Part shown: piece by piece, positions 3,293 through 32,475 of the stretch
Layout: every line of letters begins with the position of its first letter
How positions within the stretch are numbered: the first letter of the stretch is position 1
Virus record (IMG/VR): IMGVR_UViG_2778261231_000009
Span: 1-32,704 of that record
Length of the DNA stretch: 32,704 nucleotides
Source: a virus
Lineage: Duplodnaviria; Heunggongvirae; Uroviricota; Caudoviricetes
Direction: 5' to 3' (one strand)
The notes under the pieces: generated by a model
What the model was told of the DNA's origin: nothing
The model's input: the letters and a program-made list of their open reading frames with translations, nothing else
The model's database searches: none
Translations under genes and position numbers: made by a program

Positions 3293-3642
3293 CAGCTGAC
3301 CTTAACCGGATATTTCCAGGTCTGCGGCGTTCCGCTCGCAGACGTGACGGTGATATGAAGCAGCATCCAGCCTTTTTGCCAGTGCTCTGCAGTAACGGAA
3401 ATGGACTGGGCGCGACCGTCGTCAATAATCGGTTGCAGGGCCTGCCGCGAATACTGCACCGCGAGTTGTTGAACGCGAGACACATCCTTTTCGCGGCGGA
3501 GTGTATGCAAAAGAGAGCCCAGAGTTGGATCAGCCCACCATGAGCCAAGGGGCGTCATCAGCCGTAAGTAGACGGCATTCGCTAAAGAGTCTGAGCTGTC
3601 GCCGGTATAATCGCCGGTCGTTGGATCAATCAACATTTCCAT
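3292..3642 (-). CDS. Baseplate wedge protein, GPW/gp25-like (Mu gp46 / V-like)
   Basis: 116 aa; synteny; start codon lies inside an 8-bp inverted repeat and is preceded by the conserved late motif. Confidence 0.75.
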   Translation of the reverse strand: MEMLIDPTTGDYTGDSSDSLANAVYLRLMTPLGSWWADPTLGSLLHTLRREKDVSRVQQLAVQYSRQALQPIIDDGRAQSISVTAEHWQKGWMLLHITVTSASGTPQTWKYPVKVS

Positions 3643-3663
3643 GCCGTAATACTACCGGCATGG
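3639..3663 (-). promoter_or_regulatory. Inverted repeat CCATGCCG-N9-CGGCATGG containing the V start codon; the spacer contains TAGTAT
   Basis: Seen directly on the plus strand (ccatgccgtaatactaccggcatgg). Confidence 0.5.
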
Positions 3664-3678
3664 AAATTTAAATTATCG

Positions 3679-3700
3679 GTGAAGGGGTTCAGTGGGTATT
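3679..3700 (-). promoter_or_regulatory. Conserved late motif, copy 1 (upstream of baseplate gene V): ATACCCACTGAACCCCTTCACC on the coding strand
   Basis: Same core as the other two copies; 24 nt to TAGTAT, then 6 nt to ATG; sits in the 89-bp Q-V intergenic gap. Confidence 0.6.
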
Positions 3701-12637: not shown

Positions 12638-13045
12638 TTACCCCTTCGCCTTTTTGTCCGGGGTTTGCGAACCGGCCTTCAGCGAATCCAGCTCCTGACG
12701 CAGTGCATTGCGTTCAGTTTCCAGTTCTGCGATGGTGCTGTTTGCACTGGTTAGCTGCTGCTTAAGTGCATCACCATCCTGATTGAGCTGCAGAACCGTC
12801 GCCTCCAGTTCGCTGATGCGTACCTTAAGGCCGTCACGCTCAGCGATCAGGGCGGAAACAGCATCATCACCCCCTGAGATTTCAGGCACATCCTGCAGGC
12901 GGACCACAATCAGATTGGGATCGTTTTCCAGAATCTGGAGTTCGCTGTCGCTGAACTGGTCATCCGGCCAGGTGACAGTATTCGCGCTGTGGGCGATGCC
13001 GAGACGGCGAAAACCGTTACGGCGGGCAGTGATTTGAATCGGCAT
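12638..13045 (-). CDS. Coiled-coil protein at the Mu gp35 position, unknown function
   Basis: 135 aa; C-terminal half strongly heptad-like (…RISELEATVLQLNQDGDALKQQLTSANSTIAELETERNALRQELDSLKAG…); start overlaps the major head stop. Confidence 0.55.
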   Translation of the reverse strand: MPIQITARRNGFRRLGIAHSANTVTWPDDQFSDSELQILENDPNLIVVRLQDVPEISGGDDAVSALIAERDGLKVRISELEATVLQLNQDGDALKQQLTSANSTIAELETERNALRQELDSLKAGSQTPDKKAKG

Positions 13046-13953
13046 TATGCGTCCTCCCCGGTAGAGCCATACGCCATCTGCCAGAAGCCGTAGCCACCGT
13101 TTGCACGTGCTTCAGCACCGAAGAGAAACTTCTTACGCATCATCACGTTGTCAGAGTTGTAGTCGGTCTGCTCAACAAAGACTGGTTTCTTACGCTCCTG
13201 GTAAATCAGGGGCTTCACGGGCTTGGTGTTATCCAGAAGGAACCAGGCGGTATCAGACGTCAGCTCAGGGACAACCATAACCTCAGCCGTCCCCTTGTAA
13301 GGGTTTGGCGTATTGTCCGGGAAGCGGTCAGCCGTCATCAGGTAGTTGGCATCATCTTCAAGAGCCGGAGGCACAACCAGGATGGTCGGGCGAATTTTCA
13401 GGGATGCGCCTTCATCATCCTTCAGGCTGCGCATGGCGGTTCGTGCAGCGCCGTAACTTGCTTTTGCTGCGGCAAGCGAGGTGACGGCAAGCTTTTTCGT
13501 GCCTTTGTTAGAGACCGACTTGCCACCGGAAAGGTGGTCGGTATCAAAGAAGGGCTGACCATCGTAGCAAAGGTTGGTGAAGCCGTTGTTCAGGAGTGCA
13601 AAGACGATATCGGCTGGCAGTTCGGCAGCGGACTGGCCCGCACCTTTAGCCTGCAGGGCATAGCCCATAATCTGATCGTCTTCGATATCGTTACGCTCAA
13701 CTTCAACCGTCGCTTCCCAGTCTTTATTGCGAATGGTGTAGTTGAACGCGGCGAACGCTTTAATAACCTTGTCGCCAATCCACTCACGCATTTTCGGGAA
13801 ACGGCTCAGCCAGCTGTAGTCGTTCTCTTTCCCGGTCGACGGTACCACCATCGCAATCTTCTGCCAGTCGGACGGCGTCTGATCAAAGGCGTTCTGGAAG
13901 GTCGCTTTCAGATTAATGAAAATCTGACGCACATTTTTTACGTTAATTAACAC
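13045..13953 (-). CDS. Major head subunit (Mu T / gp34-like)
   Basis: 302 aa; synteny after the protease/scaffold gene; resembles Mu-type major head proteins. Confidence 0.85.
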   Translation of the reverse strand: MLINVKNVRQIFINLKATFQNAFDQTPSDWQKIAMVVPSTGKENDYSWLSRFPKMREWIGDKVIKAFAAFNYTIRNKDWEATVEVERNDIEDDQIMGYALQAKGAGQSAAELPADIVFALLNNGFTNLCYDGQPFFDTDHLSGGKSVSNKGTKKLAVTSLAAAKASYGAARTAMRSLKDDEGASLKIRPTILVVPPALEDDANYLMTADRFPDNTPNPYKGTAEVMVVPELTSDTAWFLLDNTKPVKPLIYQERKKPVFVEQTDYNSDNVMMRKKFLFGAEARANGGYGFWQMAYGSTGEDA

Positions 13954-14370: not shown

Positions 14371-15486
14371 TTATTTGAGGTATTTCGCGACGCTTTCCGG
14401 GTCATTGCCCATCATGGAGCAGATGGCCGGGTCAATCGCATCATCTTCAGCACCCTGTGACGGGTGTGACGGAAGGCCTGCAGGCGGTTGCCCCTGAGTC
14501 TGACTGGTCGTCAGTGCGGCAATCTTTGGCGCTTTTTCGATAAAGGCGGTAAGACTGGCCGGATCGGATTTCGCCAGTGACGCAGCCCATGCCTGCTGTG
14601 CCGGAAGCAGACGACCGTCGCCGAGGGCAACCGTAATCAACGCTTCAGCCTGTTGCGTGGCGAGTGCGGCGGTATTACCCGCACCTGCACGCTCTGTTGC
14701 CTGCTGAACGGCTGAATGCATGACCTCCACCGAAACCCACTTAGCCGGGTCAGGCGTGTCGAGTTTCGCTGACAGGTCGGCGATGCTCTGCGCGTTCTGG
14801 TTCAGGATATCCAGCAGACTGACCGACGCCGCTGCAGTCCCCTGGCCATTGGAAATCATGGTGATGATTTTTTGCAGCTCAGCCATAATCTCTTCTTTCG
14901 TTGAGGCGGTTGGCAGATTGAGCATCCAGCGCAGGTTGCTCAGTAGCTCATTGAGAAATTCTTCATCCATTTCGGTCTGACCCTCTGTGGTTAAATGCGC
15001 GGCCATCAGGGAGGCGGCAGCAAGTAACACTTCCTCCATCCCGTCCACCGCTGGTGTATTGGTCAGCGCGGCGTTAAGCAACTCCAGTACCTGACCGGTT
15101 TTGTCGTAAGAAAATACGGGGGAAATAAAGCGATACTCTTTCGCCTCGACCATTGCAGCCGCAGCGGCTGTCCACTCGACATCGATGGCGAACAAACCCT
15201 CGCCATCCCGCCACTCCAGCTTTTTGAAGAATGCAGCTGCAGGCGCAGGCAGACCGTTTTTAGCGGCCCGAAGGGTCTGGTGTTCGTAGTCAAGGACATA
15301 GGGGGTGGCGCGGGCATCAGCAGCGGCAATAAGGCGCTCTGCAATTTCCCGCGTCATCAGCCAGGCGGCGCATTCGGTCGGGCGACCATCACGGGCGCGG
15401 AATTCACCAGCCGGAAAGAGCTGAATGACACCGGGAGTAGCGGTGTTAATTTCCTGGGTGAGTGAAGCGATGAGTGTCTTTTTCAT
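14371..15486 (-). CDS. Head protease/scaffold protein (Mu I / gp32-like)
   Basis: 371 aa; synteny; ATG has no Shine-Dalgarno and is abutted by a 7-bp inverted repeat, preceded by the conserved late motif. Confidence 0.85.
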   Translation of the reverse strand: MKKTLIASLTQEINTATPGVIQLFPAGEFRARDGRPTECAAWLMTREIAERLIAAADARATPYVLDYEHQTLRAAKNGLPAPAAAFFKKLEWRDGEGLFAIDVEWTAAAAAMVEAKEYRFISPVFSYDKTGQVLELLNAALTNTPAVDGMEEVLLAAASLMAAHLTTEGQTEMDEEFLNELLSNLRWMLNLPTASTKEEIMAELQKIITMISNGQGTAAASVSLLDILNQNAQSIADLSAKLDTPDPAKWVSVEVMHSAVQQATERAGAGNTAALATQQAEALITVALGDGRLLPAQQAWAASLAKSDPASLTAFIEKAPKIAALTTSQTQGQPPAGLPSHPSQGAEDDAIDPAICSMMGNDPESVAKYLK

Positions 15487-15506
15487 GGTGCCGACGATAC
15501 GGCACC
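15487..15506 (-). promoter_or_regulatory. Inverted repeat GGTGCCG-N6-CGGCACC abutting the I start codon; the spacer is the TATCGT hexamer
   Basis: Seen directly on the plus strand (ggtgccgacgatacggcacc). Confidence 0.5.
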
Positions 15507-15519
15507 ACTGCGGGGAGGT

Positions 15520-15738
15520 TCAGATGAAGAGGTTCAGTGGATTATCGCTGAGGATCGCTTTGGTTGTCGGCTTATCGGGTTTAGCAGACTGACGCCTGCG
15601 GGCAAAGTATCGGTCAGTGAACCACTCAGCAACTTTTATAACCAGCCCCCCTAAGATGCCAATGAAAACCCACTGCTGCGGGGTGAAATAATCAAGGAAA
15701 GCTTTGAATGTGTACAGTTGCCCGCTCCCGTAATGCAT
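15520..15738 (-). CDS. Small predicted membrane protein (72 aa) in the G-I spacer; may not be coding
   Basis: One hydrophobic helix (WVFIGILGGLVIKVAEWF); weak Shine-Dalgarno; its 3' end overlaps the conserved late motif. No gene is expected at this position in Mu. Confidence 0.3.
   Translation of the reverse strand: MHYGSGQLYTFKAFLDYFTPQQWVFIGILGGLVIKVAEWFTDRYFARRRQSAKPDKPTTKAILSDNPLNLFI
15523..15544 (-). promoter_or_regulatory. Conserved late motif, copy 2 (upstream of I): TAATCCACTGAACCTCTTCATC on the coding strand
   Basis: 17-nt core CCACTGAACCNCTTCAY shared with copies at ~3679-3700 and ~23680-23701; 24 nt to TATCGT, then 7 nt to ATG. Confidence 0.6.
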
Positions 15739-15854
15739 TTATGAGCCCAGGCCTTTTTAAACCGCTTTTAAAAACGTCTGAACACCTCTTTGGCGAATCA
15801 CTCTAGCACAATCAGACTGAACGCGTCACAGCGCGTTACAGGACGAATTTGCCC

Positions 15855-16397
15855 TCAGTCTAAAATACGTTTCAGATACTGCTCAGCCGTATTCTCCATC
15901 TTCTCCACGTCATCTTCGGTGAGATGCAGGAAAGGACGCGCGGGCATCCTAATTTTATACGCCCCGATAGTGTTCCACTGCTCAAAGTTGGAGCGGGATT
16001 TTTTAACGAACCGGTTACCCACTGAACCATCCTTTTTCTGGCGGTACCAGGCTTTCTGACTGCGGGCCGGAATGCTGATTTCCCCGCCTTCCTGGTGGAT
16101 GCGGGCGTATTTCACATTGGTCCCGACCGTCGCCTCATCATTCGTGCTGTACTGGGTGATACTTGCCGCCAGTCGACCGCTCTTCTGGAGAATTTTACCG
16201 CCCCGGCGCTGACGGGCGTATGCCGGGCTCCAGCCCATCCATGCGGGGCGACCCTGTTGCGCGAAATTTTCTTCGACGGCATCGCCCATGGCAGCGGCCA
16301 TCTCGCGCATCAGGGGGGCGCGGTTTTCCAGCTTTTTAATGAGTTCACCGAGTGAACGCTCAAAGTCACCAATGTCATACCTGATGGCGTAACTCAT
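15855..16397 (-). CDS. Virion morphogenesis protein (Mu G / gp31-like)
   Basis: 180 aa; synteny after the F-like gene; overlapping stop/start. Confidence 0.8.
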   Translation of the reverse strand: MSYAIRYDIGDFERSLGELIKKLENRAPLMREMAAAMGDAVEENFAQQGRPAWMGWSPAYARQRRGGKILQKSGRLAASITQYSTNDEATVGTNVKYARIHQEGGEISIPARSQKAWYRQKKDGSVGNRFVKKSRSNFEQWNTIGAYKIRMPARPFLHLTEDDVEKMENTAEQYLKRILD

Positions 16398-17680
16398 GAT
16401 TTCAGCTCCAGCAGCTGCGTCGCGCGTTCAGATAACACATCACCAGGAGTGACGGTGGCACCGGCGTTCATCAGCGACAGACGCCAGCCATTGTCAGACT
16501 GCACACCACGCACCGCGCGGATACCGTTCTGCCCGGAGAGGAGCCACACCAGAGCATCATCATCAAGCCAGACACCCGCTGGCTGACGTAGCAGAACGGG
16601 AAGCTCTGACCACATCGGGCCTGGAGCCAGCCGGACATCCTCTTCGTGAATGCTTAATGTGATCGCACCGTTAACACCACGCTCTTCGAGGCGATTCAGC
16701 AGCTCAGGCTGGATACCGCCAACGCGCCTCAGGTCGCCACGGGTCTTCTGCCGCACGCTGACGGTGTCGACCCAGCGACGCACATCATCACTGACGGCAT
16801 CCAGCACTGCAGGTTCAGACAGTGTTTCATGGATGGCCTGAGAGGCAATCCGGGGCGTGGTGGTTGCAGATTTATTCATAAGGCGCTGTCCGAGAGAAGA
16901 GAGCCAGCCCTGACCCGGATTGTGCCCGAATCCGGCATCAGGCGTGTAAAGCTCGCCGTTGAAGCGTAACGCCTTAACGTCACGGGTTTCTTTTGGTCCC
17001 CATGCCTGTTGTACCGTGACAATGTCCTGCTCCCACGATTTGACCTCAATCCCCATGCGGTCAGCATCCGCCTGGGTTCTGGCGCGAATGCGGCACCGGC
17101 AGTGGTATCCGTCAGGCGGGTACATGAACTGCCACACAGGATCGTCATAGCGGGCAGTGAAACCATTGAGCCTGGCGTGGAGTGGCCGGGTGTGCATATC
17201 CATGACGGCCACGCGTTCCCATATGGGGCGAAACTCCGCGTTGGCCATCTGCTCCGCATAGCGACCGGCACCATACGCCGCCTGCATATTGGTTTCAAAG
17301 ATGGTGCGCAGACGGCGTGGCGTAAGTTGTTTACCCTCCAGTACACCATCTTCATCGGCGACCAGCCTGGCACGGTCAGCAAGCCAGCCCTTACGGATCA
17401 ACGTTGGGGTAATCTGCCGTTCGAAGTCCCGGAGCGTGCCGCCGTTAACAATATGCTCGCGCAGCGATTGATGAATATCCTCAAGCACATCCTGTTTAAG
17501 GACGCCCGCCACGGTGAAACTGGTGGCGTGGGCGCGGGCTTCAACATCGTGCCAGTTAAAGCCGGTGGTGTAGCCCTTCGACTCAAAGTAGGCTATCGCT
17601 TCTTCGGGCTTTAACCCGATGGCGTACCCCAGATCAACATCAGCTTTCGGCATTGAGTCGCCCCCAGACCTCGCTGACAA
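16394..17680 (-). CDS. Head morphogenesis protein (Mu F / gp30-like, SPP1 gp7 family)
   Basis: 428 aa; synteny after portal. Confidence 0.85.
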   Translation of the reverse strand: MSARSGGDSMPKADVDLGYAIGLKPEEAIAYFESKGYTTGFNWHDVEARAHATSFTVAGVLKQDVLEDIHQSLREHIVNGGTLRDFERQITPTLIRKGWLADRARLVADEDGVLEGKQLTPRRLRTIFETNMQAAYGAGRYAEQMANAEFRPIWERVAVMDMHTRPLHARLNGFTARYDDPVWQFMYPPDGYHCRCRIRARTQADADRMGIEVKSWEQDIVTVQQAWGPKETRDVKALRFNGELYTPDAGFGHNPGQGWLSSLGQRLMNKSATTTPRIASQAIHETLSEPAVLDAVSDDVRRWVDTVSVRQKTRGDLRRVGGIQPELLNRLEERGVNGAITLSIHEEDVRLAPGPMWSELPVLLRQPAGVWLDDDALVWLLSGQNGIRAVRGVQSDNGWRLSLMNAGATVTPGDVLSERATQLLELKS

Positions 17681-19214
17681 AAAGCGCCTGCTTTATCAGC
17701 TGTTGCAGCTGCGCATCATCCAGCTGAGGATAACTCGCAGCAATGATATCCAGTGCCTCATCAGGGCTTTGCCCCTTGCTCAGAGCCGAGACCAGCGGCG
17801 CAATCAGCTTATCCATGGCCACCGCGATGCTCTCCCCTGGCGATGTGGCGCTGTCCAGCGCATCCTGCGCAGGGTCAATAACCTCACCCGTGGTGCTGAG
17901 TGCCGTGAAATGGCGGAATACCGGCGTGGTGCTCAGCCCCACCGGAGAGGGTGCAGCAGGCGGCGTCAGCACAGCTTCGTTATCTTTTGGTACCGGAATC
18001 CCGACCTTTTTGTGTATCCATGAGGTCGGAATAGTGTCCATCCCGGCGCGTACCAGTGCGGAAACACCATTGGCAAAGGTTTCAATGCTCTCCAGCTCGC
18101 GGGTATCAAATACCAGACGCGGCTGACGGCGCGGGCTGACGTTATAACCATTAATGGCCAGTAACATACGAATGAAGCCTCGATAAAACCCTTCCAGCTG
18201 TCGGGCATCAGCGGTCAGGAGATCGTGACGGACTTCGTTATGCACATTACCAAGGGCGTTTGTTGAGGACTTACCGTCCGCCTGTGACGTCAGCGTGCCG
18301 CCGAGAATGACCTTTGATTCGGTACGCTCGCACCAGTTAATCATCGCCATGAAAGGATCAGACTGCCCCTCGGCGGCATCCTTAAATTCGATTTTGGTGT
18401 TGTCAGGAATAATCCCCGATGCGTTATGACCGATACTGACCAGCGCTTCCATGAGTTTATCCTGCTCATCCTGGCTGGCCCCGGACATATACGACCCGAT
18501 ACGCGGCGGCAGTCCGTAGATTTCAAGGAACTCAGCGAGATCGCGCACGCTGTAGTTTTTAAACAGATACGGCCAGACCAGCACGCGGTATAACCCTGAC
18601 TGCGCGATATAACCTGACTTGGCGTTGTGCGTATGCACCAGCCAGCCAAACGGCCAGAGCTCTTCTCCACCCAGCGTGCCGGTGTTAAGACGCACCTCGT
18701 CCCCGGCTTCCGGCGTGGTACAGAACCAGCGATGCGGACGCAGTTTGATTTTGACGGGCAACCACAGATTGCCGTCAAGTTCCCACTTTTCAATCTCCTG
18801 AGCAGAAAAACCATGCCCGATAGCTTCCGCCGCGTTCAGGGTAATATCTTCCATTTCCTGAAGGTCAGCGAACCAGCTGGCCACCATCGCGGCGATCTGC
18901 TTTTCTTCCGCCGTCGCGTTCGGCGGTGGCTCGATGCTCCAGTCCAGAGTAAGCAGCGCATTCTTGCGCTTGGCCATTTCGGAAAAAATATGCCCGTCCC
19001 GCTCAACCATATCTTCGAAGAGGTCAGCCTGAGCCGCCAGATCGCCGCGCTCAGCCGCTTCAAGCAAACGAGGAAGACGGGCAATGGTCATACCCCGCGA
19101 GGGGTGAGTTGGCCAGTCGCGCTGAAGCTCGAACGTGCGGGAGGTCTGGGGGGCTTTAAGCACCTCTTTATTAAGCGGGCGACCATACTGGTCAAGAATC
19201 TGAACCATTATCAA
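17640..19214 (-). CDS. Portal protein (Mu H / gp29-like)
   Basis: 524 aa; synteny immediately after terminase large subunit. Confidence 0.85.
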   Translation of the reverse strand: MIMVQILDQYGRPLNKEVLKAPQTSRTFELQRDWPTHPSRGMTIARLPRLLEAAERGDLAAQADLFEDMVERDGHIFSEMAKRKNALLTLDWSIEPPPNATAEEKQIAAMVASWFADLQEMEDITLNAAEAIGHGFSAQEIEKWELDGNLWLPVKIKLRPHRWFCTTPEAGDEVRLNTGTLGGEELWPFGWLVHTHNAKSGYIAQSGLYRVLVWPYLFKNYSVRDLAEFLEIYGLPPRIGSYMSGASQDEQDKLMEALVSIGHNASGIIPDNTKIEFKDAAEGQSDPFMAMINWCERTESKVILGGTLTSQADGKSSTNALGNVHNEVRHDLLTADARQLEGFYRGFIRMLLAINGYNVSPRRQPRLVFDTRELESIETFANGVSALVRAGMDTIPTSWIHKKVGIPVPKDNEAVLTPPAAPSPVGLSTTPVFRHFTALSTTGEVIDPAQDALDSATSPGESIAVAMDKLIAPLVSALSKGQSPDEALDIIAASYPQLDDAQLQQLIKQALFVSEVWGRLNAES

Positions 19215-20860
19215 AATCCTCCTGAAGGACCGAACCTGTCTCCGCTATGGCCACGACGGGGAACAGCTTTAAATTCAAAATTACCAGCGCCGGAAACGGC
19301 CAGCATCCAGAGCATATGCAGGGCATCTGGCCCGTCATCATGGTCAGCTTTGGGGAAATGCCGGAGCTGGTCGATAAGTGTGGTCTGGGAAGGGTGCAGC
19401 CGTATCAGGCCGTTGGCCATATGTGGCTGCAGTGACTCAATGCGCAGGAGCTTATCAACCGAAGGCGTGACGGCCCTGGCAGGAACGGGGATACCCATCG
19501 CAGCGGAGCGCTTCACCAGTTCGGTGCGCAGGAACTCCTGGAACTGGACGGACTCGACCGCCCAGACCAGACAGTTATATTCCCGCTGCAGCTCGATAAC
19601 GTCAGAGATAATTTTGTCCGGCACACGCTTACGGATACGCGCTTCGACCACATCCAGAATGCCGGTGAAGCGGTTGAAGCCACCGACCAGTAATGCGGAA
19701 GGGTCGCGGCTGTTACCGTGTTTACCCAGGCTGGGGTCACATGCGCCATAGAAGCGCCACTCGTTAAGGCGGTTGACCCAGAAGTTAATGCAGCCGGTAA
19801 ATGGCGCATCTTCGCCGCTGACGGGATCGTTCTGATATTCCGCATCAAAGGTACTGTGGCCATCACGGGCGCGGATGAGCATCAATGCATAAAGCGGACG
19901 CGCAGCCCATGAAACAACAGCTCCTTCATCCATCTCAGCCTGATGCTCACGGTAATATGCCTGCGCCAGAACCTGACCATCTTCATCGTTGTTGCGCAGG
20001 ATCTCTTCCCATTTATCCCACAGCGACATATTGTGCGGCCAGCTGATGAGCGCTTTGAACCGGGCCCGCGTCCATAGCGGATTTTTAAGGGTGCGGGAAA
20101 GCACGGAATCGTAGTGCAGGATTGTCCCGATATACACCACATCGAACTTGGCCCCCGCACCACCGAGCGGCAGGACGGTTTTTTTGAGCCAGTTATCGAG
20201 CTTGTCACGCTGCTCAGGGTTACGCACCAGCTCGTCGTTCTCGATATCATCGAGCACAGCCAGGTCAGGACGATACGGGCCATGGCGCAGGCCACGCAGC
20301 TTTTTTCCACTACCGGCGACCTGCACCTTAATGTCGTTGCGGGTGAGAATTGTCCCGGCCTGCCAGACGCGGCCACCGCCCGTCGCTTCAGGAAAGTCCA
20401 TCAGCAGACGGGGGTTAAACTGCAGTTCCGCCTTTATCGCCTCCAGCATCGGATAGGCCTGGTCGATGGAGTCCATAATGATGACCGGGTAATGCTTGAG
20501 CGCCAGCACAATGCACCAGATGACAAAAAGCTGACTCACGATGGTGGATTTGGCTTCACCACGGGGAGCCGCTATTGCATCGTTCTGGCTCCCCGTGGCC
20601 TGGATGATTTCAGGCAGGCGCTTGTAGAGATAGTTATGCAGTTCGCTGCGGGCAGCATGGCGGACATAGTGCGGAAAATAATGCTGCACAAAGTACTCAA
20701 ACCCCGTTACAGGGTCAGCGACAAGGCCACGACGCGCAGCGACAGCAGCAGCAGAGGGGTCAAAGCCCACATCTTCCGCTTCAATGGTGCGACGAAGACT
20801 GGCGGAAAGTTCCGCAAGTTCGGCAAGAAAATCTTTGCTGGATAACTTAGTTCTGGCCAT
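19211..20860 (-). CDS. Terminase large subunit (Mu gp28-like)
   Basis: 549 aa; ATPase-like N-terminal region and nuclease-like C-terminal region; synteny. Confidence 0.9.
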   Translation of the reverse strand: MARTKLSSKDFLAELAELSASLRRTIEAEDVGFDPSAAAVAARRGLVADPVTGFEYFVQHYFPHYVRHAARSELHNYLYKRLPEIIQATGSQNDAIAAPRGEAKSTIVSQLFVIWCIVLALKHYPVIIMDSIDQAYPMLEAIKAELQFNPRLLMDFPEATGGGRVWQAGTILTRNDIKVQVAGSGKKLRGLRHGPYRPDLAVLDDIENDELVRNPEQRDKLDNWLKKTVLPLGGAGAKFDVVYIGTILHYDSVLSRTLKNPLWTRARFKALISWPHNMSLWDKWEEILRNNDEDGQVLAQAYYREHQAEMDEGAVVSWAARPLYALMLIRARDGHSTFDAEYQNDPVSGEDAPFTGCINFWVNRLNEWRFYGACDPSLGKHGNSRDPSALLVGGFNRFTGILDVVEARIRKRVPDKIISDVIELQREYNCLVWAVESVQFQEFLRTELVKRSAAMGIPVPARAVTPSVDKLLRIESLQPHMANGLIRLHPSQTTLIDQLRHFPKADHDDGPDALHMLWMLAVSGAGNFEFKAVPRRGHSGDRFGPSGGF

Positions 20861-21585: not shown

Positions 21586-21870
21586 TCACAGCTCCAGTTT
21601 TGCGCGAATGAGCAGAATCGCCACCGTGATGACACCGCCTGCAATTCCACCCGTAATCGCACCGGCAGACGCACCACGGCGAGCCGCATCGTCGCTGATG
21701 GTCGTGAGGCGAACATCAATCCGGCTCAGCTTGTCATTAATCCCGCCCAGAATGTCCGGGCTGACGGGGGCCTGCAGGCGTTCGAGCTGAGCGGAAATCC
21801 GGCTCAGCGTTTCCTGCTCGCTCTGGCTGATTGTCGCGCGGCGGGTTCTGCGCTTATGTCTGGCTTTCAT
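21586..21870 (-). CDS. Small membrane protein (C-terminal transmembrane helix), lysis/packaging-region protein of unknown role
   Basis: 94 aa; basic N-terminus, coiled-coil-like middle, Gly-rich hydrophobic C-terminus (GAITGGIAGGVITVAILLI). Confidence 0.5.
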   Translation of the reverse strand: MKARHKRRTRRATISQSEQETLSRISAQLERLQAPVSPDILGGINDKLSRIDVRLTTISDDAARRGASAGAITGGIAGGVITVAILLIRAKLEL

Positions 21871-22121
21871 TTGTCCTGTTTCCTGTCCAGTTTGTTATCA
21901 ATGCGCTCGATAGCCGCTCGCAGCTCCCTCATCGCATCCATCATTGCGGTGTAGTTACTTTTCGCATCCTCACGGCGCTGGTATTCATCCCGGATGCGAT
22001 CAACCGCCTTTTCCAGGTCGGTAATGTCTTTTTGCAGACGGCGTATCCAGATGGTGCCGAAGGTTGCAGCCAGCGCCAGCGCAATCTGAAAGGCCATATC
22101 AAGAGTCATGATGTTGTTCAC
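21867..22121 (-). CDS. Small membrane protein (N-terminal transmembrane helix plus coiled coil), holin/antiholin-like candidate
   Basis: 84 aa; FQIALALAATFGTIWI helix followed by charged coiled-coil. Confidence 0.5.
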   Translation of the reverse strand: MNNIMTLDMAFQIALALAATFGTIWIRRLQKDITDLEKAVDRIRDEYQRREDAKSNYTAMMDAMRELRAAIERIDNKLDRKQDK

Positions 22122-22750
22122 TTCCTGTAATACTCATTTATTGCCTGCAGCCTGCCCTCAATGAGCTGGCACCATGCGCCGTATTCCGCTGAAAACGACA
22201 CTATTCCAGTGGGGGAGAGTCCGCCACCGGTGCCTGTGGTCTGGCCGGTATGACCAGGAGCGCCGCTGGCGGTGGCTGGCAGATGCTGACCAGCGGGGAG
22301 GCTTTCGGATCCTGAGTAGCCAAAGGCTTCACGGAAGAGCTGCAGGCCGCCAGGGCCAATGCCGGTATAACCAGGACCATCTTTATCAAGTGCATCTTTA
22401 AGCCTCTTTTTAAGATCGCGAACAGTCTCGTCATGTGCCTTTTGCTTTTCAGCCAGCTCGCGGGTCAGCGCATCCGCTTTCTGCTGCCAGGCGTTCTGCT
22501 TATCAAGTGCAGCCTTCAGGTCAGCTGCATACTGATTTGCAGCGCTGAGCCTCTCCTGATCCCACTGCCGTTCTTTTTCACTGAAACCATCAGTCAGGCG
22601 TTGCTTCTCCTGGCTGAAGGCCAGCGCCTGAGCGTCCAGCTTGTTGCCTGTGAGGAAGGTGCCGAACCATATCCCGCAGCCTGCCAGAACCACGACGACG
22701 AGCAGCGGTTTCCAGCTAACCCTCAGGATTTTCTGGGCTGCTTCCCACAT
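22118..22750 (-). CDS. i-spanin (Rz-like)
   Basis: Internal start MWEAAQK…; N-terminal helix LLVVVVLAGCGIWFGTFL then a long charged coiled-coil periplasmic domain; contains an embedded lipoprotein ORF in another frame. Confidence 0.65.
   Translation of the reverse strand: MWEAAQKILRVSWKPLLVVVVLAGCGIWFGTFLTGNKLDAQALAFSQEKQRLTDGFSEKERQWDQERLSAANQYAADLKAALDKQNAWQQKADALTRELAEKQKAHDETVRDLKKRLKDALDKDGPGYTGIGPGGLQLFREAFGYSGSESLPAGQHLPATASGAPGHTGQTTGTGGGLSPTGIVSFSAEYGAWCQLIEGRLQAINEYYRK
22201..22395 (-). CDS. o-spanin (Rz1-like outer-membrane lipoprotein), embedded in the i-spanin gene
   Basis: Internal start MHLIKMVLVIPALALAAC… gives a signal peptide with an L-A-A-C lipobox, followed by a Pro-rich mature peptide; entirely inside the i-spanin ORF in a different frame. 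Confidence 0.6.
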   Translation of the reverse strand: MHLIKMVLVIPALALAACSSSVKPLATQDPKASPLVSICQPPPAALLVIPARPQAPVADSPPLE

Positions 22751-22979
22751 CGCGCACCTCTCTGGCTCGTTTGATGGACATATGTTTTGATGCCTGACTC
22801 TGAGCCACCCACGCGCCCAGATAGGTGAGATACAGCTCACCAGGAGTTTCGGGGCGGGTAACGGTGAGCCAGACCAGTACGAAGGAACTGACCAGGAAGG
22901 CCAGAAAAACGATGGTGTCTGACGTAGAGAGACGACCGGTGGCCGGGTTCGTCACCAGATCGCGCAGAGATATTTTCAT
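22716..22979 (-). CDS. Small membrane protein, holin candidate
   Basis: 87 aa with one strong helix (IVFLAFLVSSFVLVWLTV); ATG overlaps the endolysin stop. Confidence 0.5.
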   Translation of the reverse strand: MKISLRDLVTNPATGRLSTSDTIVFLAFLVSSFVLVWLTVTRPETPGELYLTYLGAWVAQSQASKHMSIKRAREVRDVGSSPENPEG

Positions 22980-23620
22980 AGCGCCGCCTTAGCGACATTC
23001 AGCCGCGCCACGCGGTCAGCCTGACCTTCAGCCGGAGGGTTGATACGCCGGGTTACGGCCAGAAAATTGCCTTTGTCAGCCAGCTCGTTGCAGCCATTTG
23101 CCTTCCAGTACCAGGCAGCGCTGCGGGCTGCGTTGAGATACTCCAGTAACAAATCGGGATTCGCGATGAGATCGAGGCCCAGCGCCTTACCGCAAAGGCG
23201 GTAATTATTGCGCAGGGTAATCTGAATCAGGCCACGTCCGCGAAAGCGCCAGCCATCGCCTGATGCTTCATTACCGTTACCCCCCTGATTTGCGTAAACA
23301 TAATTCGCCATTTTTTCAGGGTTACGGGTATAGCGTCGGGCAAATTCAATCTCGCAGGGCTCGATAATACGATTCTTATTGAGATCGAAGTCGCTGCGGA
23401 AAATACGCGCCACGCGCTCAGCATCAGAGTAATAGAGATTTTCACTGAGCCGACTGAAACCCGCGCTTTCATGGCCGGTTTGAGCAATAAAGGCGGCAAG
23501 TCTGGCGGGTGTATTAATTTCGAATTCAGCGGTGGCTTTACCGAATGGTTCAAACCATCGTTGCGCCATCACTGGCGAAAGAGCTGCTGCACGCTGAAAT
23601 TGTGGGAGTGTTAAAAGCAT
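22976..23620 (-). CDS. Endolysin, glycoside hydrolase family 19-like (soluble, no N-terminal signal-anchor)
   Basis: 214 aa; …AAFIAQTGHESAGF… and overall pattern resemble GH19 phage lysozymes; first gene after the late motif and a leader hairpin. Confidence 0.8.
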   Translation of the reverse strand: MLLTLPQFQRAAALSPVMAQRWFEPFGKATAEFEINTPARLAAFIAQTGHESAGFSRLSENLYYSDAERVARIFRSDFDLNKNRIIEPCEIEFARRYTRNPEKMANYVYANQGGNGNEASGDGWRFRGRGLIQITLRNNYRLCGKALGLDLIANPDLLLEYLNAARSAAWYWKANGCNELADKGNFLAVTRRINPPAEGQADRVARLNVAKAAL

Positions 23621-23621
23621 A

Positions 23622-23649
23622 ACGCCATCCGGTTAAAAAGGGATGGCGT
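23622..23649 (-). promoter_or_regulatory. Leader hairpin (9-bp stem, 10-nt loop) immediately upstream of the endolysin ATG, covering the GGA Shine-Dalgarno-like bases
   Basis: Plus strand acgccatcc-ggttaaaaag-ggatggcgt; seen directly. Confidence 0.5.
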
Positions 23650-23679
23650 CAGTATTTCATCGGGTTAGGTGAATAATCA

Positions 23680-23701
23680 GGTGAAGAGGTTCAGTGGAAT
23701 T
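23680..23701 (-). promoter_or_regulatory. Conserved late motif, copy 3 (upstream of lysis cassette): AATTCCACTGAACCTCTTCACC on the coding strand
   Basis: Same 17-nt core as copies 1 and 2; about 60 nt upstream of the endolysin ATG. Confidence 0.6.
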
Positions 23702-24200
23702 AGTTGTCAAACTGTACAACAAACTGATCTTTCTCTTCACTGTACCATTTCACTGTATATGAAAACACTCTATCAGAAACAGTCAAGTTACAGTGTCTCA
23801 CTGCATTAACCCGGTCATAACTCATTTGCGCGGGCTCAGAGAATTTTTCTCCATTCAGCAACTCTGTAAGAACAGAATGGACATCGGATGAATCACAGCC
23901 AGGTAAATCACCTTTGTAAAAATTAATCACTGGGGCAATAAATGCTAAAATGAACATCAGGACATAAACTGATAAGGGGCTAACATTTTTTCCGCCCTGG
24001 ACACTACTGGCATCATCCGAGTCTGATAATGCACTTCCGATTAATTTTTTTCTTTTAAATAGATACAATGGAATGACAATGAAGAATATGAATGCTGAAC
24101 CAATCCCCCAACGGGCAGGTCTTGCAATGTTATTGGTGATAGCATCTTTGTAAACAGCAACAGAAGCACCGAATATAATTAAAGCAATTAAAAACTCCAT
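23700..24200 (-). CDS. AT-rich moron: three-helix membrane protein with ~70-aa C-terminal soluble domain, unknown function
   Basis: 166 aa; hydrophobic segments at roughly residues 2-17, 32-48 and 75-95; region visibly AT-rich versus flanks (estimated by eye at high-30s % GC against mid-50s); occupies the slot between the Mor/C-like gene and the lysis cassette. Confidence 0.7.
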   Translation of the reverse strand: MEFLIALIIFGASVAVYKDAITNNIARPARWGIGSAFIFFIVIPLYLFKRKKLIGSALSDSDDASSVQGGKNVSPLSVYVLMFILAFIAPVINFYKGDLPGCDSSDVHSVLTELLNGEKFSEPAQMSYDRVNAVRHCNLTVSDRVFSYTVKWYSEEKDQFVVQFDN

Positions 24201-24213
24201 GTATATTACCTTT

Positions 24214-24648
24214 TTAAAAAAGTTCTTGTTGATTGATTGATGTGTTTTGTCTGTGCTGGCTTAGTAACTGCCATCCAAAACGATCGCTGAATCCATACTT
24301 AGGGCAAAGAAAGGTCATGGCCATAAGAGAGGATGAACCTTGTTCACGCACTTCGGCGAACTCGGCGAGAAAGCGGCGGTTGCGTAATTCACGAAGGGCA
24401 CGATCACAGCGCGGTAAATAGAGAACTTCTCCGCCGAAATTCTTGATGAGTAATTGGGTTTTATCATCGCCGATAGTATTGCGCAGGAGGGCTGCGCGGC
24501 TGGCCCCCATAGCGCGGAGGCCTTTACCTATCGGGAACGTGGTGCCACCAAAAGCAGAAAGAAGCTGCTCGGTCGCCGGGAAGCCTATCAGGTCAGCTAT
24601 TTGAATCACTGCTGATGGCAGCAGCTCCGTTACCTGTTCCAGATTCAT
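24214..24648 (-). CDS. Mor/C-family transcriptional activator
   Basis: Internal start MNLEQVTELLP…; GGEVLYLPRC… and the basic C-terminal half resemble Mu Mor/C; overlaps the 3' end of the GemA-like gene. Confidence 0.7.
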   Translation of the reverse strand: MNLEQVTELLPSAVIQIADLIGFPATEQLLSAFGGTTFPIGKGLRAMGASRAALLRNTIGDDKTQLLIKNFGGEVLYLPRCDRALRELRNRRFLAEFAEVREQGSSSLMAMTFLCPKYGFSDRFGWQLLSQHRQNTSINQQELF

Positions 24649-25069
24649 TATTACGCTCCCGCTTTTTTCGCCGACTCGCATCAATGCTGAGAGCCTGCAT
24701 GAGTTTGGTTAACTGTTCAGTCGTCAACCACTCGATGTATTTGACGTGAAACATATGATCGCACATTTTCTCGGCATAATTCCACGGACGTTTTGCATCT
24801 GCAAGTAATGCGTTAATTTTAGAAAGAATTGACTCGCGCGTATTGGCAACCTTTGGGCGTCGACCGTGTTTTACTGAGTAGCGAGGAAAACCCTTGTCAT
24901 GCATATATTCCATGACAGCCTGCAGCTCGTCGAGGGTGCATTTAGTGGATGATGTTTTACCGTTGCATAAGCGAGACAGAACACTACGGTAGGTTACCTC
25001 ATCCCACCCCAGATATGCCTGACCGGCTTTAATTGCCCCTATAAGGCCTCGTTTTGCTGGCGTGGACAT
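24593..25069 (-). CDS. GemA-like regulatory protein (Mu gp16, DUF1018-type)
   Basis: Internal start MSTPAKRGLIGAIKAGQAYLGWDEVTYRSVL… preceded by a GGAG Shine-Dalgarno; matches the N-terminal pattern of GemA-family proteins. Confidence 0.7.
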   Translation of the reverse strand: MSTPAKRGLIGAIKAGQAYLGWDEVTYRSVLSRLCNGKTSSTKCTLDELQAVMEYMHDKGFPRYSVKHGRRPKVANTRESILSKINALLADAKRPWNYAEKMCDHMFHVKYIEWLTTEQLTKLMQALSIDASRRKKRERNNESGTGNGAAAISSDSNS

Positions 25070-30417: not shown

Positions 30418-32475
30418 TCAGAAGGTCGCTTTTTTATTGCCCTGACTTTTCAGCCATTCTTCACGCTCTGATTCGAACAGGAACACATGTTCCCGAGCAT
30501 CATTAATACGCTCTGCGTCCGATGGTATTAATGCGCCGAAATCAGGGTACATATCGCTTTCAGGAAGCAGGCCTCTTGCCTCTGCTTCAATCTCTTCCCG
30601 TTGTTCGTCGATGCGCTTCAGACGACGCTGGCGACGTTTCTCAACGGCGATATCCATCATGCTGGTTGGCAGCGCGGCACGCTTATTGCCGTTCCAGATG
30701 GCGGTGCAGACATAAGTACCGTCCATGCGACGAACGATGACGGCAGCAGGGTCGTGAATGTCATAGGCGACCCGGACTTCCTCACCGTCGACCTGTATCA
30801 GGTCAGCGCTGAAATACTGGTTATTCATCAGGTCAATCCAGCCCCGCTGGGCGGTGCGGCACATTTCCGGCATGAAGGCTTCACGAAGCTCGATATCCGT
30901 CAGATATTCAATATCGTCACCCTCAGTGGCCAGAACCTCGCGGCGGTACTGTGCTGGCGTCATATGCACACCATTACGTTTTGGTAGCTCGCTGTGCTCA
31001 TGCAGGTTGTTGTATTTGTCGACTTCCTCAGCAATGGTATCCAGCAGCATCTGCCACGACGGCAATTTACGCAGCGCGTTACGCTGTACGCTCGTGAGTT
31101 CGCGCCCATTCTCCTGAGCCTTAATCGCTGACTGGATAGCGCGACCGGTCATCCGCACATGCTCACGGTCGGCCCCGAATCCATTGTAAGTATCAAATTT
31201 ATTGGCAATCGCTCTCGGTATTACGGCGTTCAGTCGTTCGATAATCCCGCGTGACTGCGGTCGACCCGGAATACTGGTCGGGTGATCAATACCCATGCGA
31301 GTGAAAATACCGGTGATATCAGCATCCAGCGTTTTATTGGTTTCACCGCCACCGTTATCCGAATAGACAAAAAGAGGTTTTCCGTGGAATTTCATGGCGT
31401 AGCGATAGGCATCCGCTACGGCGATGACGTTCTCTGAGAGCGCCAGGCTCCAGCCCACCAGGTAGCGGGTGCGGCCATCGATAACCAGCGTCAGTTCAGG
31501 TGTGAATGGACGACCATGGACCGGATGAGCAACTTTCATATCCAGCGATTTACCATCCGCAATCCAGCAACCATTTACTGGCATTTGTGACCAGTCACGC
31601 TTCTGATAAACCTCATAAGCCAGAGCCGCTGAACCGCTGATACGGCCGCGAGCGCGTTCACGTTTTGGTAGCTTTTCCATCGCCCGACGCACGGCATCAT
31701 AAGACGGACAGACGGCGAGCATCGCTGGCTGTCCCGCATAAATAGCCTGCCATTCAGTCTTGAATGAGCGCCACGCATCCACCAGAGAAGGGCCTGAGAG
31801 TTTCCGCCAGTGGGCGAGAAAATCAGGGAGCCACTTAATCTGCTCAGGCTTACGCGCTTTAAGATGGCCTGGTGCCAGCAAAGCCAGGCGTTCGATACCT
31901 GGACGTGTAGAAAGGTAAACAGACAGCCATTCCTGAAGTGTTCTTTCGCCCACGCCACGACGGCTGGAACCTTTACGCGCATTGGCAATATCAGCCGCAG
32001 CCTGGATGTTTTCCGGCAACGTGCCCTTGCGTGACTCTTTGGCGATGAACTCAACCGCCGATGCGCGTGACATACCGATATCCCGAAGACGCTCAACCTC
32101 TGCGGCTAATAATGCGCGGGCGTCGGCGATCTGTTTCTGGCGTTCGGTAAGGTCAGAGACCTCACGCTCCAGCAATACCGGGCACTGCCGCAATAACGTC
32201 AGTTCGTCGCGGGTCGTGGTGACTTCCCGCTTTGGTGCAGTCGGCGCTGATGAACAATCAGACTGTTTCAGCACCTCGCGATAATGCCGGGCTTTGACTA
32301 TTTCACGCGCCTGTTCAGGCAGGCAGTCGATGTGGTACTCGAATGCTTTGCTGCCAGCACGTTTGCGAACCAGTTCAGGGGAGTTGCCTGCACTTTTTTT
32401 AAGGCTGTATCGCAGTCCTTGTTGTGTTGTTGGCAGTCCAGGGACGCCAACTAATTCGTTAACAGTCACGAACAT
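30418..32475 (-). CDS. A: DDE transposase (Mu A-like)
   Basis: 685 aa; N-terminal DNA-binding region, central integrase-like catalytic core; resembles MuA; ATG overlaps the ner stop. Confidence 0.9.
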   Translation of the reverse strand: MFVTVNELVGVPGLPTTQQGLRYSLKKSAGNSPELVRKRAGSKAFEYHIDCLPEQAREIVKARHYREVLKQSDCSSAPTAPKREVTTTRDELTLLRQCPVLLEREVSDLTERQKQIADARALLAAEVERLRDIGMSRASAVEFIAKESRKGTLPENIQAAADIANARKGSSRRGVGERTLQEWLSVYLSTRPGIERLALLAPGHLKARKPEQIKWLPDFLAHWRKLSGPSLVDAWRSFKTEWQAIYAGQPAMLAVCPSYDAVRRAMEKLPKRERARGRISGSAALAYEVYQKRDWSQMPVNGCWIADGKSLDMKVAHPVHGRPFTPELTLVIDGRTRYLVGWSLALSENVIAVADAYRYAMKFHGKPLFVYSDNGGGETNKTLDADITGIFTRMGIDHPTSIPGRPQSRGIIERLNAVIPRAIANKFDTYNGFGADREHVRMTGRAIQSAIKAQENGRELTSVQRNALRKLPSWQMLLDTIAEEVDKYNNLHEHSELPKRNGVHMTPAQYRREVLATEGDDIEYLTDIELREAFMPEMCRTAQRGWIDLMNNQYFSADLIQVDGEEVRVAYDIHDPAAVIVRRMDGTYVCTAIWNGNKRAALPTSMMDIAVEKRRQRRLKRIDEQREEIEAEARGLLPESDMYPDFGALIPSDAERINDAREHVFLFESEREEWLKSQGNKKATF

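Follow-up and report, generated by a model that had tools for sequence, protein, structure and literature searches.

Here we describe the gap between the head genes G and I of a Mu-like tailed phage (Caudoviricetes; IMG/VR record IMGVR_UViG_2778261231_000009, positions 1 to 32,704), the whole 32,704-nucleotide stretch being referred to below as the window. We regard it as probable that this spacer separates two late operons, one running from the lysis genes through G and the other from I onwards, and that it combines a conserved non-coding core, a slot for cargo genes and the promoter of I. Central gyrase sites in Mu-like prophages and activator-dependent late promoters are already known kinds of element. 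Less familiar are a phage-21-type holin that naturally lacks its first transmembrane domain (TMD1) and is encoded in the head-gene region of phages with another type of lysis, and a family-wide signature of ~11-bp tandem units just after G. A literature search, narrow in its coverage of the holins of Mu-like phages, found no description of a TMD1-less holin among head genes or of the ~11-bp signature.

The features of the spacer and its two flanking genes are as follows, in window coordinates:

15855-16397, minus strand: gene G (virion morphogenesis, PF05069, 180 aa), the last gene before the spacer

15794-15828, minus strand: block A, TGACGCGTTCAGTCTGATTGTGCTAGAGTGATTCG, kept in the closer relatives

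15754-15774, minus strand: block B, TTTTTAAAAGCGGTTTAAAAA, at +81 to +101 nt past the G stop

15520-15738, minus strand: 72-aa open reading frame (ORF) of the phage-21 S holin family (PF04971), without most of TMD1

15525-15540, minus strand: candidate activator box CCACTGAACCTCTTCA (block C) with the dyad TGAA-N4-TTCA, analogous to that of the Mu promoter P_I

15487-15506, minus strand: inverted repeat GGTGCCG/CGGCACC with the −10-like hexamer TATCGT (15494-15499) in its loop

14371-15486, minus strand: gene I (Mu-like protease/scaffold, PF10123, 371 aa), the first gene of the next late operon

The initial annotation had singled out this gap as a spacer of about 370 bp near the genome centre, among late genes that otherwise overlap or abut, and these observations stand: the gap measures 368 bp (15487-15854) and neighbouring late genes overlap or lie at most ~13 bp apart. 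It shares 95% identity over this region with L001, a complete Mu-like prophage of ~34.2 kb inserted in ydbL of Escherichia coli FDAARGOS_1303 (NZ_CP070045), where the spacer lies ~17.9 kb from the left end, at a fractional position of 0.52. Its description as unusually long holds only in part. A G-I gap of ~200 bp is a conserved trait of the Mu-like group (median 218 bp across 53 Mu-like viral contigs, 10-90% range 201-258 bp; 196 bp in Mu), and only the extra ~150 bp is peculiar to the lineage of the window. Spacers of at least 300 bp occur at just five of the 53 loci; besides that of the window, the long spacers with a holin-family gene are those of L037, L038 and L039.

Enterobacterial relatives that lack the ORF, found through their G protein in Kosakonia, Citrobacter, Trabulsiella, Serratia, Morganella and Intestinirhabdus, have spacers of 199-223 bp. 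Alignment of spacers by eye identified three conserved blocks, A, B and C, which these relatives share; the window and L001 differ from them in the segment between B and C, where a variable stretch of ~66 bp becomes ~213 bp that form the body of the ORF. The extra length is simply an inserted gene. A search of the spacer DNA against a phage database returned no match.

At the 3′ end of the spacer lies an element that the initial annotation, which had listed a possible gyrase site, a small ORF and a palindrome there, had missed: the promoter of the I operon. Block C (consensus CCACTGAACCyCTTCA) stands ~55 nt before I and is followed by the inverted repeat, directly before the I start codon. There are exactly three copies of the 16-bp box in the window, each on the late strand (1.07 occurrences expected at ≤3 mismatches), the two further ones being:

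23682-23697, minus strand: activator box copy before the GH19 endolysin gene

3680-3695, minus strand: activator box copy before the gp46 baseplate gene

A −10-like hexamer follows each box at a distance of exactly 25 nt (AATACT, TATCGT and TAGTAT for endolysin, I and gp46, respectively), and a Mor-family activator (PF08765) is encoded at 24217-24684, the only Mor/C-family gene seen. In Mu, Plys, PI and PP, which are late promoters, have a −10 but no −35 element and carry a 16-bp imperfect dyad, centred at −43.5, to which the activator C binds (PMC2582627). The arrangement here resembles that of Mu P_I (and of Plys, PP and Pmom) in its place upstream of I, the absence of a −35 element, the presence of a −10 and a 16-bp dyad near −44, as well as in the use of one box for both lysis and baseplate/tail operons and in a phage-encoded activator of the Mor/C family. 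It differs in the box itself (CCACTGAACCnCTTCA here versus ..ATAACCCCAG.. in Mu) and in having its −10 inside an inverted repeat, with the start codon ~7-8 nt further on. The last ~55 bp of the spacer are thus well supported as a predicted activator-dependent promoter of I, the dyad being centred near −44.5 from the presumed transcription start.

The three late promoters share the layout of box, 25 nt and −10-like hexamer (3640-3695, 15484-15540 and 23618-23697, all minus strand). At I and gp46 the hexamer lies in the loop of an inverted repeat of 7-10 bp (GGTGCCG-TATCGT-CGGCACC and CCATGCCGG-TAGTAT-TACGGCATGG) and the start codon follows 6-7 nt past the −10 with no Shine-Dalgarno sequence, which suggests that these two late messages may be leaderless; at the endolysin, by contrast, a hairpin, GCCATCC...GGATGGC, stands immediately in front of the start codon. 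An Rfam scan gave only a sub-threshold match to UPD-PK2 (15484-15504, plus strand; 24.7 bits against a gathering threshold of 32, E 0.029), which overlaps the inverted repeat at the start of I and which we set aside as almost certainly due to chance.

Between the core and this promoter lies the cargo slot. The suggestion that the spacer could accommodate an accessory gene is borne out by the short spacers of the ORF-less relatives and by other lineages that carry different cargo at the same point: unrelated membrane proteins of 165 aa in L060 (2227-2724, in a 696-bp spacer) and 213 aa in L065 (2251-2892, in an 860-bp spacer). Neither protein matches a Pfam or PADLOC family, the 213-aa one giving only a faint CARF-like match (E 0.02). 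The slot is empty in most relatives. Its limits are set by the core and the promoter of I: in every case the cargo starts at least +117 nt past the G stop, outside the core, and stops before the promoter. Elsewhere in the window, a predicted multi-helix membrane protein of 166 aa with no Pfam match is encoded between the Mor-family activator gene and the first late box (23700-24200, minus strand), and may mark another place where cargo is carried at the boundary of an operon.

In the Mu-like phages of Pseudomonas (the JBD30 and D3112 group), the gap between the G-like and protease/scaffold genes holds the anti-CRISPR/aca1 locus, and it was on this ground that a small accessory gene had been considered plausible here, with an anti-CRISPR role as one possibility. 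The two loci are alike in using the same slot for variable cargo, and both the position and the small size of the ORF agree with an anti-CRISPR or other anti-defence function. The Pseudomonas locus, however, encodes a small soluble anti-CRISPR protein together with a helix-turn-helix regulator of the aca type under a promoter of its own, whereas the ORF here encodes a membrane protein of the holin family PF04971. No helix-turn-helix (aca-like) gene adjoins it, and PADLOC defence and anti-defence profiles matched neither the 72-aa ORF nor the other cargo proteins. We therefore consider an anti-defence role very improbable; a cargo gene between G and I is not automatically an anti-CRISPR gene.

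The 72-aa ORF has the single hydrophobic stretch first noted in it (WVFIGILGGLVIKVAEWF). Its match to PF04971 reaches 37.5 bits, where the cut-off is 26 (E 2.4e-9), with residues 6-53 aligned to positions 15-62 of the 64-position profile; it also matches a PHROG holin family, and it shares 36-40% identity with S holins from phi80, Klebsiella prophages, H-19B and Stx phages. Aligned with the S proteins of phi80, H-19B and phage 21, it lacks ~10 N-terminal residues, hence most of the signal-anchor-release (SAR) helix, and the remnant GSGQLYTFKAFLDYF is too weakly hydrophobic to span a membrane; the same is true of the relatives P0009, P0011, P0012 and L038. What remains is the motif FLDYFTPQQW, the second helix, a TDRYF motif and the basic tail. 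These elements are shared with the S21 68 pinholin of the lambdoid phage 21, a class II holin, and the S proteins of phi80 and H-19B, which have FL(D/Q)xx(S/T)PxQW, a helix, LT(D/N)xYF and a basic tail in a protein of similar size. The differences are equally clear. S21 68 has two helices, the first of SAR type, while the 72-aa protein has one and lacks the dual-start motif, an in-frame TAA standing directly before its sole ATG; the glycine zipper of the helix is G-xxx-S-xxx-G in S21 68 and G-xxx-G-xxx-K here (zipper as in PMC9025707); and S21 68 is encoded beside a SAR endolysin, whereas the 72-aa ORF lies among head genes of a phage whose endolysin is a soluble GH19 enzyme.

Close homologues (86-99% identity) all come from prophages of this one type, where they lie between G and I, and the exact or near-exact product has been recorded from Enterobacter hormaechei, Salmonella and Citrobacter. 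More distant single-helix relatives, obtained by a full HMMER search over 1.84 billion representatives, are P0009 (53% identity), P0011 (47%) and P0012 (36%), the first of which also lies between G and I, in the more diverged Mu-like prophage L029, whose homologue scores 31.2 bits on PF04971; a third lineage, L038 and L039 (44-45% identity), has the gene in the same slot. Among lineages at 44-53% identity, the proportion of synonymous differences (pS) is 0.73-0.84, i.e., saturated, against a proportion of non-synonymous differences (pN) of 0.30-0.38. By these comparisons, at least three diverged lineages are shown to keep a holin-family gene in the G-I slot, under what reads as long-term purifying selection. 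The family is certainly a real gene; that the allele in the window is fully functional is less certain.

Several observations weigh against a functional holin-type product from that allele. No good Shine-Dalgarno sequence precedes its ATG, which stands in the context TAA ATG; K35 and E38 fall within the membrane helix, where the zipper positions are G27, G31 and K35; the C-terminal tail is frameshifted relative to a 69-aa form; and the endolysin of the phage lacks a SAR-type N-terminus, so that a pinholin could not release it. Two deletions separate the 72-aa form from the 69-aa one, an in-frame loss of 9 bp and a loss of 4 bp; the latter shifts the tail into block C, so that the last codons and the stop of the ORF overlap the late-promoter box.

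It is rather unlikely, in our view, that the slot gene survives in this lineage only as a decaying or silent ORF from which no functional product is made. The weak start (TAA ATG, with AAGG 14 nt upstream), the replacement by CTG of the Met-Glu start found in L029 and L038, the passage of the tail into the promoter box through the 4-bp deletion and several non-synonymous changes among close relatives would all agree with decay, as would the absence of an ORF call by the Prokaryotic Genome Annotation Pipeline (PGAP) in E. coli FDAARGOS_1303. Yet both haplotypes have the ORF intact, and the assembly collection lists it in 193 blocks (25 contigs read); residues 10-48 hardly vary, dN/dS is 0.27 for the window versus L001, and a GGGAG lies 7 nt ahead of the CTG that occupies the ancestral start position. 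L029 (GGAG) and L038 (GGGGG) have Shine-Dalgarno sequences. Annotation of the locus is inconsistent: in L001 a 77-aa hypothetical protein, WP_233098473.1 (18757-18990), is called antisense to the holin-family ORF and is probably spurious, while the holin-family ORF goes by the name ‘phage holin’ in records from Enterobacter and Citrobacter. Dissection of the spacer thus corrects labels where annotation pipelines disagree.

The part that such a protein might play depends on the remaining lysis genes of the phage, which are listed here with the other landmarks of the window:

22976-23620: GH19 endolysin, its N-terminus not SAR-like, downstream of the first late box

22716-22979: two-helix DUF2644 protein, a putative holin

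22118-22840, minus strand: larger, membrane-anchored i-spanin ORF of a putative spanin pair, read from its translation

22201-22434, minus strand: putative embedded lipoprotein o-spanin (LAAC lipobox), likewise read from its translation

21867-22121: gp25-like membrane-tethered protein

19211-20860, minus strand: terminase

17640-19214, minus strand: portal

16394-17680, minus strand: F

13045-13953, minus strand: major head protein

30418-32475: transposase

The spanin pair, in an apparently embedded arrangement, lies 3′ of the GH19 endolysin and DUF2644 genes. A pinholin is unable to release a soluble endolysin (PMC9025707), and for this reason the protein encoded between G and I would not be the primary holin. 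The positive-inside rule predicts an N-terminus outside, one helix and the basic tail in the cytoplasm, which is the N-out/C-in topology of the active form of S21 68. Deletion of TMD1 from S21 68 is said, from work of the Young laboratory, to leave a functional, unrestrained pinholin. The ‘half-pinholin’ without TMD1 that is found in several enterobacterial lineages would then correspond to a constitutively membrane-active form of the phage-21 holin, with a lysis-timing or depolarising effect.

Expression of the gene is probably late, by read-through from the lysis-to-G operon. It would be the last gene of that transcript, because it follows G, is separated from it by a hairpin without a U-run and precedes the promoter of I. 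The protein would probably act as an auxiliary in the membrane, on lysis timing or depolarisation, beside the regular lysis genes. Phage P1 (LydC, LydD) and mycobacteriophage D29 (LysA2b) likewise encode extra small holin-like proteins away from the main lysis genes; there the dispersed proteins tune lysis, but they are unrelated in sequence to the 72-aa protein. A natural phage-21-type holin without the inhibitory first helix, kept for long among the head genes, would offer a test case both for the restraint of pinholins and for the role of extra holin-like genes.

The hairpin in question is the palindrome AACGCG-N6-CGCGTT (15820-15837, without strand), which had been placed slightly further left, near 15810-15830. 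The sequence is there, but a 6+6 palindrome with a loop of 3-8 nt is expected ~0.5 times by chance in 368 bp (by our own estimate), its local fold is not better than that of shuffled sequences (z −1.66), and one arm is broken by a C to G change in the closest relatives. Some distant relatives have a hairpin with a U-run at this position (L007; L009, z −2.4). We rejected a terminator reading of the palindrome in the window, which has no U-run and no significant fold; it may be the degraded end-of-operon hairpin of the lys-G operon, and it is not a meaningful feature in itself.

Block A also reads as a weak sigma-70 promoter, TGACGC-N17-TGnTAGAGT, from which the small membrane protein could be expressed by the resident prophage. 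The gene would then be a ‘moron’ active in the lysogen, for example in superinfection exclusion or abortive infection through membrane depolarisation. The accessory loci of the Pseudomonas Mu-like phages, in an analogous slot, are self-promoted, so that the position of the slot here mirrors theirs, and the match is of the extended −10 type and is kept in the closer relatives. It reaches only 8 of 12 positions, though, and was not listed by a promoter scan. Moreover, block A is also present in relatives without a cargo gene, where such a promoter would read into the head genes, and is not conserved in the Serratia, Morganella and Intestinirhabdus relatives; the lack of PADLOC matches also speaks against a moron. 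We judge expression of this kind quite improbable and retain late read-through as the likelier source of the protein.

The non-coding core comprises the first ~110 bp after G and is present in all relatives, with block B at its end. Block A, at +27 to +61 nt past the G stop, follows the pattern TGACGCGTT...GTGsTAGAGTGATTCG across the spacers. Block B, a pair of A/T blocks each centred on TpA and set 11 bp apart, occurs once in the window (0.09 occurrences expected) and is conserved at +70 to +95 nt past the G stop across Mu-like phages. Of 35 non-redundant Mu-like loci, 19 have the motif TnAn-N3-7-TnAn between +55 and +115, where 0.12 would be expected, and it persists down to ~37% identity of the G protein. 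In most of the other lineages this place is taken by different tandem units of ~11 bp, e.g., TTCTAACGG, CGTTAAACCCC, CTTTATAGCC or GCGTTAGA, each present in two copies; TTTGAACAC is a further unit present in two copies, and the Sp18-like prophage of E. coli O157:H7 has TTTTCTAACCTGTATTTAACGGGCTTTAAAA. Units of ~11 bp that alternate A/T and G/C, 70-100 nt past G, are a feature of nearly all Mu-like phages, in a sequence specific to each phage. We discarded the idea that block B might be a transposase site of the Mu-end type, since the ends of L001 carry CGAAAAA-type sites, unlike block B.

It had been proposed that the spacer might include a gyrase site like that of Mu, and we find the balance tipped slightly in favour of the core being a Mu-type central gyrase site. 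That reading is favoured because of its position, its conservation, the phasing of its A/T blocks and the exclusion of cargo from the ~110 bp; the motif score, an ordinary one, lends it no support. The Mu site does lie between G and I: in the Mu record the annotated cut is at 17879/80, 20 bp past G (which ends at 17859) and before I (which starts at 18056). Like Mu's strong gyrase site (SGS) and the central site of Sp18 (E. coli O157:H7 Sakai), the core here lies just after G and before I, close to the middle of a transposable prophage, and its ~110 bp are close to the 130-bp footprint of gyrase. [quoted passage not shown] The comparison with the Mu G-I region that had been called for was only partly rewarding, as a global alignment with MAFFT was uninformative and the likeness is confined to this A/T-block motif, with no extended sequence identity in the spacer of the window. 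A further difference is that Mu and Sp18-like sites are cut 17-20 nt past the G stop, whereas the predicted cut here lies at 45-56 nt; any gyrase site centred in the core would have the 3′ end of G as its left arm.

[quoted passage not shown] Only two clear periods of such signals are seen in the core of the window. Optimal Mu replication needs a central position of the site, and the Sp18 site is able to replace that of Mu, according to a review (PMC10052514). The gyrase site here is a predicted one, with an ordinary score on a rebuilt motif. Central G-I fragments of Mu-like prophages, in work of Oram and Pato from 2004, were reportedly all cleaved by E. coli gyrase, while only some supported Mu replication. 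A pattern of that kind would fit a weak-to-moderate gyrase site in the window.

The alternation of A/T and G/C blocks resembles the arms seen in the Topo-Seq motif for gyrase (consensus ...CCTTTAAGGGGGCCTTTT...). For scoring, we rebuilt the gyrase matrix from 583 published pairs of site and score and the W3110 sequence; a symmetric fit reproduced 98 of 130 consensus positions with a cross-validated error of ~1.5 bits. Asymmetric fits were dropped as overfitted, and a simple count of consensus matches failed its positive control, the Mu SGS matching at only 41-44 of 129 positions. The window's best site between −40 and +130 relative to the G stop is TAGAGT^GATT^CG (15800/15799), in block A, and in nearly all relatives the best site is either this one or one helical turn upstream. 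In the best register, the TpA steps of block B fall at about +30 and +41, both of them A/T-preferred positions of the arm. Scores of relatives range from 5.2 to 8.3, and the Sp18-like site, which is functional, reaches only 6.3.

Against these points, the best site of the window scores 6.1, within the top ~0.9% of positions and about the chance maximum over 170 bp, while the maximum elsewhere in the window is 10.4 and the Mu SGS has 10.5 on the same rebuilt scale. Across 42 lineages, the post-G region does not score above control windows (mean maximum 7.1 vs 7.7). The rebuilt matrix is itself limited, as it ranks the Mu site fourth in Mu (10.5), where the published matrix ranks it first (14.3; PMC6379681). 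The tandem units, moreover, are near-identical within a phage and different between phages, which would also fit a sequence-specific binding protein.

In that case the core would not be a gyrase site; a phage-encoded or nucleoid protein would read two to four head-to-tail units of ~11 bp and might serve to mark where one operon ends and the next begins, or to organise the prophage. Identity of units within a phage combined with change between phages (TTCTAACGG, CTTTATAGCC, GCGTTAGA and TTTGAACAC, each present twice) looks like co-evolution with a reader protein, and the lack of enrichment in gyrase-motif score points the same way. But no candidate protein is known, and block B is present only once in the window. 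Every variant, furthermore, keeps the A/T and G/C pattern and the ~11-bp period that gyrase arms prefer, and the same place in Mu is experimentally a gyrase site. We consider a binding protein of this kind unlikely. As for novelty, we entertain only tentatively the possibility that the ~11-bp units are a common right-arm signature that has gone undescribed, or else the site of a protein yet to be named, and that they stand beside a general cargo point carrying the half-pinholin.

Should the core be a gyrase site, gyrase bound in the middle of the prophage would wrap the phased right arm around the C-terminal domain of GyrA and supercoil processively, and the supercoiled loop could then bring both prophage ends together for transposition. 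A family-wide alignment would also provide a comparative handle on what makes the Mu site special and would reveal which arm features persist across very diverged phages.

Outside the window, a second TTTAAA-N5-TTTTAAA motif (CGTTTAAATCACTTTTAAACG) lies at 963-985 of L001, ~170 bp inside the left end, with short inverted repeats on its flanks; the background rate predicts one or two such matches per prophage. In the Sp18-like prophage of E. coli O157:H7 strain 7409 (L028), a tRNA-OTHER feature (1657-1737, opposite strand) is annotated in the stretch that separates the F and G homologues.

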